Below are positions 25,402 to 32,000 of a stretch of 32,000 bases of DNA, in pieces. Under the pieces are notes generated by a model. It did not search any database, was not told the DNA's origin, and saw only the letters and a list, made by a program, of their open reading frames with translations. Source of the DNA: Candidatus Jordarchaeales archaeon (lineage in GTDB: Archaea > Asgardarchaeota > Jordiarchaeia > Jordiarchaeales > Freyrarchaeaceae); contig JAWAHN010000001.1 in the NCBI GenBank assembly GCA_038889235.1, positions 584,499 through 616,498 on the forward strand, read 5' to 3'. Made by a program: the position numbers and the translations under genes. Within the stretch, counting starts at the first letter, position 1; each line of letters begins with the position of its first letter.

Positions 25402-26359
25402 ATGGTTGTAGCGTCAGCGCCGGGTAAAGTGATATTATTTCGGTGAGCATGCTGTTGTTTACGGGGAACCAGCCCTTGTTATTGCCGTGGACAAGCGTGC
25501 TTTTGCCGAGGCGCTACCGCTCCCAGGAGATAAAATTCGCATATTTTCTCGTGAATATCAATCGCAGGTCGAATTTAAGATAGATGAAGAGGCGCCCGCT
25601 GGGCTCTTTAAGCCCATATGGACGATTGTTTCTAAACTTAAAGAATATGGGTTAAAAAAAGGGTTTGAACTTAGAATTTGGTCGGAAATACCCCCGGGGG
25701 CAGGGATGGGGTCTTCTGCCGCTGTAGCTGTAGCAGCAACTGCAGCGATAAGTTCTCTGTTCGGGATAACTCTCTCCAAAAGAGAGATATGTGACATTTC
25801 TTTTGAAGCAGAGAAAGACGTGCATGGAACACCGTCTGGCGTAGATAATACTATAGCTACTTACGGCTCAGCTATAATTTTTAGGCGAGGGAAGATGAGG
25901 AGGATTGAGGTTAAGGGGGAGGTGCCTTTCGTAGTGGGTGACACTGGAGTTAAGCGAAGCACGAAAGATTGGGTTGCGAAGGTGCGTGGAAGGAGAGAAA
26001 GGTGTAGAGATTTAGTTGATCCAGTGATTAAGTTGATAGGTAAAATTTCGTTGAAAGGTGCGCGTCTTCTAATGGAGGGAAGACTTCCAGAGTTAGGGGA
26101 GCTGATGGATTTAAATCAAGGGCTTCTCGATGCACTTGGTGTTTCGACTCGAGAGTTAAGTAACTTGATCTTTGCTGCTAGAAGTGCTGGTGCATATGGA
26201 GCTAAATTGACTGGTGCTGGAGGAGGCGGGTGTATGATTGCCCTGACGGCTGCTGAAACAAGTAGTAAAGTAGCTAGAGCGATACAAGTTGCTGGAGGAA
26301 TACCTATAACGGCAAATATTTCGATGGACGGCGTTAGGATAGATGTAGATGCGAGGTAG
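25402..26359 (+). CDS. mvk: Mevalonate kinase, split by a +1 frameshift at codon 13-14 (sequencing error, pseudogene or recoding)
   Basis: ATG at 25402 gives MVVASAPGKVILF-R-stop. The +1 frame from 25442 gives GEHAVVYGEPALVIAVDK, joining the 25487 ORF with PPGAGMGSSAA, HG.PSG.D and KLTGAGGGG. This is the canonical GHMP N-terminus SAPGKVILFGEHAVVYG with one extra T. Confidence 0.88.
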
Positions 26360-28776: not shown

Positions 28777-30369
28777 CTACAGTTTCTTGGAAACATAAAC
28801 CCCCTCTTTTTCATATCCATGTCTGTAGTAATATTCTTTCACACCTAAACCCGAGAGCACTAATATTTTCTTTGCGTCACATTCTTCTCTAGCTATTCTT
28901 TCAGCATTTGCTAGAAGTTGTTCTCCGTAGCTCTTATGTTGCCAGGCATCTTTAAGTCTCTCACCTAAGGGGACAAGCGGACCGTAAACACGGAGTTCTC
29001 TAACTATCACTGAAGGCTGACTGGAGACTTCGGGTCTGTGAGCCTTCTCTGAGGGAACCCTCATCCTTATGAAACCAATAAGGGCCCGTCGATCTTCTGT
29101 CTCGTACGAAATAAAGTACTCTTCTCCTTCGGAGGCCTCGTACTTTTCAACGTGGAGCTTTATTTCGTCAGGTGACGGTGGAAGGCCGCCTCTGCGTAGG
29201 TAGCGCCCTATCTCTCTGCAGCGTATGCATCTGCAGCGGAGGCCCTCAGACTCGAGTTTACGTAACACGAGCTCCCTCAGATTACTCTTTTTGACGCCAG
29301 CGATAATTAGCCTGGCGGGTATATCCCTTTGTACTCTCTGGATTCTAATCCAGTAGGGCATCATTTTCTTTGCTTGAGCAATTATGTCGATAATTGTATC
29401 CAGCGGGTATGGCTGGTACTCGCCCCTCTTATACATCTCATAGAGCCTCGTGCCTTCTAGAACGAGGCACGGGTAAATCTTCAGACTGTCAGGCTTAAAC
29501 TTAGGGTCAAAGAACAAAGTCCTGAAGACTTCAACGTCGCGTTCCGGTGTAGATCCAGGCAGGTTTGGCATAACGTGAGCTGTAACCTTTAGCCCCGCAT
29601 CTTTCGCTATTCTGAACGCTTCAACGACATCTTCTACGCTGTGACCTCTTCGAATCAGGGAATAAATTTCTTCATAAACCGTCTGGACGCCTAGTTCAAC
29701 TTTTGTTGCTCCAAGATGCAGCATCCTATCGACGTGGTACTCCTTGCAGTAGTCGGGTCTTGTCTCTATCGTTATACCTACGTTTCTAATTTTAGACCTC
29801 TCTGAGAGCTCTTTAGCTTCATCTAAACTCTTCGAGGGGATTCCGGTAATTGCATCCAGGCACCGTTTCACAAAGAAGTCTTGGTAATCCTCGGGGAACG
29901 CTAAGAAAGTGCCTCCCATTATTACGAGCTTCACTTTACCTCCATCAACCGAGTGGCCCATCCTCTTATACTGTTCCAAACGGGACTTGACTTGCAGGAA
30001 AGGATCATAGTTGTTCTCTATAGCGCGTAGCGTGGCTGGCTCATGTCCGGTGTATGACTTAGGTGAGGTGACGCCACCGGGACAGTATATGCAATTTCCA
30101 GGGCAAGGGTGCGGAGGGGTCATCACTGCTACAATTAGGATTCCTGAAAGGGACCTTGTGGTTTTCCTGCGCAGAATTTGGACGACTTTTTCTTTTTCAT
30201 CTGGTGAGGCGTAACTCATGAGTTTTATATTGCTGGGGACCGCTTTCAACTTGTAGCGAGAACAGACGAAACGCTTAGCTTCCTCGGGGCGCCAACCCTC
30301 AAGGATGAGTTTGATAATCTCCTTGCACGCTTTCTCCTCTAGCGTGGCCTCCTGACCTGCAATGTACAT
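28777..30369 (-). CDS. elp3: tRNA U34 carboxymethyltransferase Elp3 (radical SAM plus KAT)
   Basis: RSLSG...VAVM, C..C.YCPGG, SYTG.EPA, MGGTF, ETRPD, ELGVQ, KIYPC, RIQRVQRDIP, CRCIRCRE, RELRVYG, QH..YG..L, SGLGVKEYY. Confidence 0.96.
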   Translation of the reverse strand: MYIAGQEATLEEKACKEIIKLILEGWRPEEAKRFVCSRYKLKAVPSNIKLMSYASPDEKEKVVQILRRKTTRSLSGILIVAVMTPPHPCPGNCIYCPGGVTSPKSYTGHEPATLRAIENNYDPFLQVKSRLEQYKRMGHSVDGGKVKLVIMGGTFLAFPEDYQDFFVKRCLDAITGIPSKSLDEAKELSERSKIRNVGITIETRPDYCKEYHVDRMLHLGATKVELGVQTVYEEIYSLIRRGHSVEDVVEAFRIAKDAGLKVTAHVMPNLPGSTPERDVEVFRTLFFDPKFKPDSLKIYPCLVLEGTRLYEMYKRGEYQPYPLDTIIDIIAQAKKMMPYWIRIQRVQRDIPARLIIAGVKKSNLRELVLRKLESEGLRCRCIRCREIGRYLRRGGLPPSPDEIKLHVEKYEASEGEEYFISYETEDRRALIGFIRMRVPSEKAHRPEVSSQPSVIVRELRVYGPLVPLGERLKDAWQHKSYGEQLLANAERIAREECDAKKILVLSGLGVKEYYYRHGYEKEGVYVSKKL

Positions 30370-30488: not shown

Positions 30489-32000
30489 TTGTTGAAGACC
30501 GGTGAAAGTGAAATAGACTGGAAGGCTGTTGGCTTTACGGCTGGTCTAGAAGTTCACCAGGAATTGCTCACGCCGCGCAAGCTTTTCTGTCGCTGTTCCC
30601 CTAAACTTAGGAATGACCCGCCTCACTTTACAATTAAAAGATTTTTCCGCCCCGTTCTCGGGGAAATGGGGGAGTACGATCCCGCTATGCTGGCAGAGTA
30701 TGAAAAAGGTAAAGTCGTCATTTATGAAGGATACTATGATACTACTTGCACGTATGAGTTGGACGAAATGCGCACGCGGTAGCGCGTGTGCACGCTAAAC
30801 GCCTCCGTTTGAAATTTCACAGGAAGCGCTGGAAATAGGGTTGGAGATAGCGCTGCTCCTGAAAGCTAGAATTATCGTTGACGAACTTCATGTCTGCCGT
30901 AAAATGTACCTTGATGGCTCTGTTCCATGCGGCTTTCAGCGCACGCTCATAATAGGTATGAATGGAAGTATACCAATAAATGGAAAGGAGATCCCCATCG
31001 AGACAATTTGCATAGAAGAGGACGCTGCGCGCAAAGTTAAGGAGGAAAAGAATACTGTATATTACCGGCTTGACAGGCTCGGCATACCTTTAGTGGAAAT
31101 AGTGACTGCGCCTTGCATAGAAAGCCCGGAGGAGCTCGTCGAAACAGCGTTCAGGATAGGGCTCCTTCTTAGGAGTACAGGGAAGGTTAAGCGCGGGATT
31201 GGAACTATAAGACAGGACATAAATGTGAGTATAAAGGGAGGGGCGCGGGTCGAAATAAAGGGTGTCCAGAAACTTGAGTGGCTTCCTAAGCTAGCTAGAA
31301 ACGAGGTCATACGACAGCTTTCCTTGTTGAGGATAAAGGAGGAGCTTACACGCAGGGGGGTTAGGGAAGAGGACTTGAAGCTGGATGTCAAGGATGTAAC
31401 GGAGATTTTCAAAAATACGCAGAGCAAGATACTTAAACCGAGAGGTGGCGAAAGAGTTTTGGCTGTACGTCTCCCTAAGTTTTCAGGAATACTTGGAGTT
31501 GAGGTGCAGCCGGGTAAACGCTTTGGTAAAGAAATCGCCGAAAAAGTGCATGCGTACACGGGTCTTGCAGGCATAATACATTCAGATGAGGACCTTAAAG
31601 AGTATGGCATTAGCGACGACGAAAGAAGAGAGCTTTGCCGGGTGCTGAGCATTGAAAGTGACGACGCCTTTGTCATAGTGAAGGCACCTCGAGACATCGG
31701 AGAAAAGGCCTTGGAAATTGTCGTTAATAGAGCTAAGCAAGCTCTAAAGGGAGTGCCAAACGAAACTAGGCGTGCTTTGGAGAACGGGAACAGTGAGTTC
31801 CTACGAGAGCTTCACGGAGGGGCACGTCTATACCCCGATACCGACACGCCTCCTATAAAAATCGGTCGAGAGCTTAAAGAAAGGGTCGCCAGCAGGCTTC
31901 CAACGCCGCCATGGAATCTCAAGGAGGAACTTGTAAGAAAATACAAGATAAGTGATAGGTTTGCTGATGAACTTATACTCGAAGGTAAGGTATTCCTTTT
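30489..32000 (+). CDS. gatE: Glu-tRNA(Gln) amidotransferase subunit E, two exons (30489-30767 and 30799 to beyond the window end)
   Basis: Exon 1: GLEVHQEL..RKLFC.C, RP..GE.GE.DP, ending ...TCTYELDE. Exon 2, read by hand from 30799 with no stop to 32000: TPPFEISQEALEI...DGS..GFQRT, EED, RLDRLGIPLVEI, KRGIGTIRQD.N.SI.GG.RVEIKGVQ, QPG.RFG.E, HSDE. Confidence 0.93.
30768..30798 (+). other. Candidate 31-nt bulge-helix-bulge (BHB) intron in gatE mRNA
   Basis: AAA bulge (30766-68), 10-bp stem UGCGCACGCG/CGCGUGUGCA with GUAG loop, central 4-bp GACG/CGCU (one A.C mismatch), AAA bulge (30797-99). Removal gives GAC GAA ACG CCT CCG = D-E-T-P-P. Confidence 0.8.

Follow-up and report, generated by a model that had tools for sequence, protein, structure and literature searches.

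A putative BHB mini-intron in the gatE pre-mRNA of Jordarchaeia, with a second insert 5 nt away in Atabeyarchaeia

Main finding

An archaeon of the Asgard class Jordarchaeia has a single gatE gene, and this gene is interrupted at positions 30768-30798 of the window (the whole stretch of 32,000 nt that was analysed) by 31 nt that are highly likely to be a BHB intron of the pre-mRNA. Judged from the sequence, it is very probable that the tRNA-splicing enzymes have to excise these 31 nt from the gatE mRNA and ligate the exons. In the mechanism proposed here, exon GACG of the folded transcript would pair with intron CGCU to form the central helix (H), flanked by AAA bulges, the intron hairpin (h') and the exon-exon helix (h). 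An (alpha-beta)2 EndA would then cleave each bulge between its second and third bases and RtcB would join the exons, giving ...GAC GAA|ACG CCU... (ELDE|TPPF) and a full-length GatE with the predicted junction peptide ...YELDETPPFEISQEALEIGLEIALLLK; the excised intron would probably be freed as a small circle. GatE, together with the GatD encoded directly downstream, would amidate Glu-tRNA(Gln). Cleavage and ligation of the transcript, and any regulatory role that they may have, are predictions from the sequence. If they hold, the essential formation of Gln-tRNA, which has no GlnRS backup, would depend on the capacity of the tRNA-splicing enzymes EndA and RtcB.

Interruption of the gatE reading frame

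The gatE frame, which begins at TTG 30489 (+) with GAGGTG ahead of it, runs into TAG at 30780-82, as the initial annotation had described, and a TAA at 30796-98 closes the frame of exon 2 just ahead of that exon. With one stop in the exon-1 frame and the other in the exon-2 frame, one change of frame is not enough to connect the two halves of the gene; both codons that had been cited against rescue by a simple frameshift were thus found in place. Translated separately, 30489-30767 gave ...TCTYELDE and 30799-31998 gave TPPFEISQEA..., and excision of 30768-30798 (31 nt) resulted in ...YELDE|TPPFEISQ.... The two pieces covered positions 2-88 and 90-480 of the NCBIfam profile NF003107 and positions 1-86 and 88-472 of TIGR00134, exon 2 being counted within the window. 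Because the pieces abut on both profiles, removal of 30768-30798 yields a seamless, uninterrupted GatE, in agreement with the LDE|TPPFE junction that had been derived by cutting after the second nucleotide of each bulge. In Pfam, the pieces matched GatB_N and GAD, with GatB_N assigned to exon 1.

Exon 1 (30489-30767, +) comprises 93 codons from the TTG start. Exon 2 (30799-32000, +) continues for about 430 nt past the window to position 616928 of contig C1 of this genome (G000), with 547 codons in all. The part of exon 2 within the window scored 497.5 bits on its own against NF003107 (cut-off 456). The whole exon 2 in the genome was free of stops and matched positions 87-622 of TIGR00134 with 579.3 bits, positions 1-88 being supplied by exon 1. 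Both exons are under strong purifying selection, with dN/dS of about 0.05. In comparison with the relative G003, dN was 0.052 for exon 1, where dS was saturated, and 0.133 for exon 2 (dS 2.9, dN/dS 0.046), and an intact exon 2 of 545-549 codons was present in six species.

This gatE is the only copy in the genome (95% complete), the remaining profile matches being gatB. No GlnRS was found in the genome with the glnS profile, whose one match (216 bits, below the cut-off of 425.8) is GluRS. A second intact gatE or a GlnRS, either of which had been named beforehand as evidence that this copy is a dispensable pseudogene, was sought and not found in the genome at this completeness. The gene 110 nt downstream of gatE is an intact gatD (C1:617038-618240, 574.7 bits). 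On the other side, divergent from gatE, window positions 28777-30369 (-) encode a 530-aa radical-SAM/GNAT protein judged by eye to be of the Elp3 type (tRNA U34 modification), and the promoters of both genes lie within the 119-nt spacer.

BHB motif of the insert

All the elements of the hBHBh'-like fold described in the initial annotation were recovered with their coordinates, and the motif was also the top hit of a blind search. Outer helix h is formed by 30756-30761 (GAGUUG) and 30800-30805 (CGCCUC) and is paired here at five of six positions. Central helix H has 4 bp, of which three are paired, between the exon strand 30762-30765 (GACG) and the intron strand 30793-30796 (CGCU); it contains two Watson-Crick pairs (C-G and G-C), one G.U and one A.C mismatch, and the motif in this genome is relaxed in respect of the last two. 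The bulges, both AAA, sit on opposite strands at 30766-30768 (predicted cut after 30767) and 30797-30799 (predicted cut after 30798), and since they are identical any symmetric cut would give the same mRNA. Within the mini-intron (30768-30798, +), which carries TAG 30780-82 as well as TAA 30796-98, hairpin h' occupies 30769-30792, with a stem of 10 bp (30769-78 with 30783-92, one G.U) and the loop GUAG (30779-82), and it is present in the minimum-energy fold. Along each strand the elements follow one another as helix, H, bulge and helix, which is also their arrangement in pre-tRNAs whose intron lies at position 37/38.

In the blind scan, a 180-nt region was searched for every BHB geometry with the reading frame ignored. 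The pair of cuts that restores the gatE frame came top with a score of 33 (runner-up 21), and this score was reached by none of 200 dinucleotide shuffles. The same held in all 14 genomes that carry an insert: the frame-restoring cuts were the top blind hit in each, and in each the frame and the D-E-x-P-P motif were restored. When BHB motifs that join ORFs were ranked across the window, gatE was first among 186 candidates. The overall fold energy of the region was unexceptional (z = -0.48), and the BHB conformation in this genome, at -17.8 kcal/mol, was 4.9 kcal/mol above the minimum-energy fold, in which the 3' bulge is shifted. No Rfam family matched the insert region.

Conservation and covariation in the class Jordarchaeia

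Each of the 11 species genomes in the class had an insert at the same codon boundary of gatE; these genomes belong to the Jordarchaeaceae and to a second family, the Freyarchaeaceae, that includes the closed Freyarchaeia chromosome CP147778, on which (CP147778.1) the insert occupies about 1472160-1472189 of the minus strand. The length of the insert was 31 nt in this genome, 29 nt in G001, 35 nt in G002 and 30 nt in G003, in G004 (another genus) and in the six Freyarchaeaceae genomes, and the internal stop codons varied by genome (TAG, TAA or TGA). Three of these four lengths shift the frame which, together with the variable stops, means that only removal at the RNA level rescues gatE throughout the class. 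The insert is genomic: it occurs in 14 species genomes (11 Jordarchaeia and three Atabeyarchaeia, described below) from at least seven separate deposited assemblies, with lengths that include non-multiples of three. All the genomes compared are metagenome-assembled and some are closed.

Covariation was scored for each pairing cell of the named structure in the alignment of the 11 Jordarchaeia sequences. Both AAA bulges were invariant (11 of 11). The stem covariation that the initial annotation had suggested looking for was seen in H and in h'. Helix H was paired in 97.5% of cells, with four of four pairs formed in most relatives, and contained one compensatory pair (C-G to U-A, split 5:5) whose exon-side change is synonymous (GAC/GAU). 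Hairpin h' was paired in 94% of cells and both sides had changed in seven of 10 pairs. Outer helix h was paired in 48% of cells, with no compensatory changes, and the motif is accordingly HBh'-like (relaxed) in the relatives and hBHBh' in this genome. The observed covariation score was reached in none of 500 shuffles, and pairing fell to 19-50% in controls in which the 3' partners were slid by 1-3 columns. In unconstrained minimum-energy folds of G001-G004, helix H was present and both bulges were free; five of the six Freyarchaeia folds lacked the full motif, four of them being without H and the fifth (G005) keeping H with the 5' bulge closed.

The insert in Atabeyarchaeia and gatE in other lineages

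Family f13 (L020, L023 and L079, with two closed genomes of 2.8 Mb) was taken to represent the Atabeyarchaeia by comparison with PMC11291895. All three of its genomes carry an insert in gatE (41, 41 and 35 nt). The best blind BHB in these genes has AGGC/GCCU as helix H and AGA/AGA as bulges; its cut falls within the Asp codon of the D-E-x-P-P motif, 5 nt upstream of that in Jordarchaeia, and removal of the insert restores EAD(E/D)EPPH. The intron sequences of the two groups could not be aligned. In the GatE tree, Atabeyarchaeia grouped with the intron-less families f12, f7 and f6, apart from Jordarchaeia and Freyarchaeia (split support 100/99), and this position among lineages without the intron suggests an independent gain. 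The simplest reading of these sequences is that the Atabeyarchaeia intron was probably acquired independently, the two gains lying a few bases apart; descent from an old shared intron whose position slid and which was lost many times is a less probable alternative. With their sites separated by 5 nt and their hosts in non-sister classes, the two gatE introns would make a tractable case for the study of intron gain.

Almost everywhere else in a 400-genome sample of the phylum, gatE was uninterrupted, and no gap at the site was found in the named loci of Odin-, Hel-, Hod-, Njord- and Promethearchaeota, Thermoproteota, Euryarchaeota and DPANN. Introns were considered and rejected in three further Asgard genomes, where gatE has a lone in-frame stop without any insert (TGA in G145:C3:682156-684039, TAG in G120:C291:37-1923 and TAA in G384:C214:1165-3051); these stops are possibly Sec or Pyl codons, or sequencing errors. 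A scan of metagenomes with a degenerate pattern of the spliced junction returned 113 loci, none of which exceeded 80% nucleotide identity with gatE of Jordarchaeia or Freyarchaeia. They were rejected as spliced cDNA or intron-less alleles, being intron-less genes of other lineages.

Splicing enzymes and tRNA introns

Two EndA paralogues are encoded in the genome, one of which (alpha, G000:C1:~1056164-1056754) keeps the Tyr/His/Lys triad and the other of which (beta, C3:~444000-444590) is without the His. This is the pattern that an alpha/beta heterotetramer predicts, and it indicates that the EndA, which had been proposed for typing, is of the two-subunit alpha/beta kind. RtcB, the second enzyme invoked, is also present and intact (599.9 bits). 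According to Kaneta et al., Asgard EndAs are (alpha-beta)2 enzymes with an L1 loop that gives broad specificity (PMC5829648); by analogy the EndA of this genome may be similarly permissive.

ARAGORN called 14 tRNA genes in the 95% complete genome, 10 of them intron-bearing, and the majority of the tRNA genes presumably escape detection because they are too heavily interrupted. Introns have been described in 92-95% of the tRNA genes of Freyarchaeia and Atabeyarchaeia, often several to a gene (PMC11291895), and the three Asgard families with the heaviest load of introns are reported to be Jordiarchaeaceae, Freyrarchaeaceae and Atabeyarchaeaceae (bioRxiv 10.64898/2026.10.13.758758). The low number of tRNA genes called here, mostly with introns, fits both reports. 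The gatE intron is distributed over exactly these three families.

Alternative explanations

The two parts of gatE could in principle be translated separately, as an N-terminal polypeptide of 97 aa and a C-terminal one that assemble into GatE without RNA splicing. A two-polypeptide GatE of this kind would be comparable to the split genes known from Nanoarchaeum. Both ORFs exist as such, and TTG 30841 could start the downstream product; a start at this codon, however, loses TPPFEISQEALEIG and with it the conserved PP of D-E-x-P-P (the TPPF segment), and only 29-41 nt lie between the two parts, without a start codon at the exon-2 boundary. Two polypeptides would also leave unexplained the conserved BHB geometry with its compensatory changes, and the fact that in 14 of 14 genomes the blind BHB cuts fall exactly at the junction that restores the frame, which makes a split gene very improbable. 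Still less probable is recoding during translation, by ribosomal bypass or, in the in-frame variants of 30 nt, by read-through of the stop with Pyl or Sec. A hairpin and a stop just past the take-off site do recall the hop in phage T4 gene 60, but the 3' end of the insert has no landing codon that matches the take-off GAA. Jordarchaeia recode UGA as Sec, whereas Pyl decoding has been reported for Sifarchaeia only and not for Jordarchaeia (PMC9723677), and the internal stops differ between genomes (TAG, TAA, TGA). Inserts of 29, 31, 35 and 41 nt shift the frame, with stops in both relevant frames, and read-through would place 10 non-conserved residues in the conserved D-E-x-P-P motif.

The least probable explanation is that gatE is dead, or that the insert is an assembly or sequencing artefact and not real DNA. 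Every source is a metagenome-assembled genome, and automated callers would report two fragments of the gene; yet 14 species genomes share homologous inserts, among them closed chromosomes such as CP147778 and at least seven assemblies that were deposited separately, the two exons are intact throughout with dN/dS of about 0.05, and gatE is single-copy in a genome from which GlnRS is absent. Two further observations were counted in favour of a BHB intron in gatE, namely that the lineages with this intron are the Asgard lineages richest in tRNA introns, and that two other genes of this genome, cbf5 and aIF5B, are likewise split.

Comparison with known introns

A cbf5 pre-mRNA intron was reportedly described in Crenarchaeota (Desulfurococcales and Sulfolobales) by Watanabe in 2002 and Yoshinari in 2006. 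This cbf5 intron, whose splicing was shown experimentally, is the only confirmed archaeal pre-mRNA intron in the searchable literature (PMC2738675, Yokobori 2009). It resembles the gatE intron in that its hosts have a hetero-oligomeric EndA of broad specificity, its presence or absence is lineage-specific and annotation pipelines misread it as a frameshift (PMC2738675). The two differ in host gene (cbf5 as against gatE, for a tRNA-dependent amidotransferase) and in lineage (Crenarchaeota as against Asgard archaea); gatE is moreover one of several split core genes in its genome, cbf5 included, and its splicing is predicted from sequence whereas that of cbf5 is experimental. Archaeal tRNA introns are said, in work by Marck and Grosjean from 2003, to have hBHBh' or HBh' motifs. 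The gatE insert shares with tRNA introns the 3-nt bulges, the 4-bp helix, the cut after the second bulge base and the size range, and with those of Freyarchaeia and Atabeyarchaeia also the lineages and the presumed enzymes (PMC11291895; bioRxiv 10.64898/2026.10.13.758758). It differs from them in that the substrate would be an mRNA without a tRNA body. In eukaryotes, splicing of HAC1/XBP1 involves the endonuclease Ire1 and a tRNA ligase, which is RtcB in metazoa. Here too a short, frame-changing mRNA intron is removed without the spliceosome and the ends are joined by a tRNA ligase; HAC1/XBP1 differs in its use of Ire1 with its stem-loop recognition sites and in being stress-regulated.

No report of an intron in gatE, or of a BHB intron in an Asgard mRNA, was found in the literature searched, outside which most subscription journals lie. 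The mechanism is that of the known cbf5-type pre-mRNA intron; what is new is gatE as the host gene, the Asgard lineage, the conservation across the class and the apparent double gain.

Other split genes in the genome

The initial annotation had also raised the possibility of further split core genes, and two were found in the same genome. The cbf5 gene (G000:C1:835691-836673) falls into two frames, with the break near position 70 of the profile, and the gene for aIF5B (aIF-2, TIGR00491; G000:C1:806522-808305) is split at the P-loop. The aIF5B insert is a BHB of 29 nt with AAA/AAA bulges, and the 5' cut after C1:806572 gives ...GHIDHGKT|SLLDAIRG...; no earlier paper on an intron in aIF5B was found. 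By eye, a candidate Rab-like GTPase at C1:996246 resembles a split of the aIF5B type. When BHB motifs that join ORFs were sought across the whole genome at loose or moderate thresholds, frame-shifted decoys were at least as numerous as real candidates; such a scan is swamped because gene boundaries dominate it, and it was therefore used for ranking only, in which aIF5B and the Rab-like gene came up, and not for a genome-wide count.

The balance tips slightly in favour of a wider reading, in which the splicing of BHB mRNA introns of about 30 nt is routine in Jordarchaeia and Atabeyarchaeia and obligatory for essential translation genes (gatE, cbf5, aIF5B and others), such introns having been gained repeatedly (in gatE twice, 5 nt apart, in two non-sister classes). 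If this wider reading is true, introns in protein genes and the cutting and rejoining of mRNA would be widespread even among certain prokaryotes that are closest to the eukaryotes. Gene callers mis-annotate core genes of these lineages as fragments or pseudogenes, with effects on estimates of completeness and on metabolic reconstructions.

A different kind of interruption was observed at the start of mvk (mevalonate kinase; window 25402-25450), where the mvk frame reads ...GTG ATA TTA TTT CGG TGA and the conserved motif (K)VILFGEHAVVYG goes on in the +1 frame. One extra C follows TTT, and the five Jordarchaeaceae genomes, which represent two genera and separate assemblies, all have ATATTATTTCGGTGA without variation. 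This invariance suggests a conserved site of programmed +1 frameshifting, with a UUU-C slip before CGG-UGA, and neither an error nor an intron.
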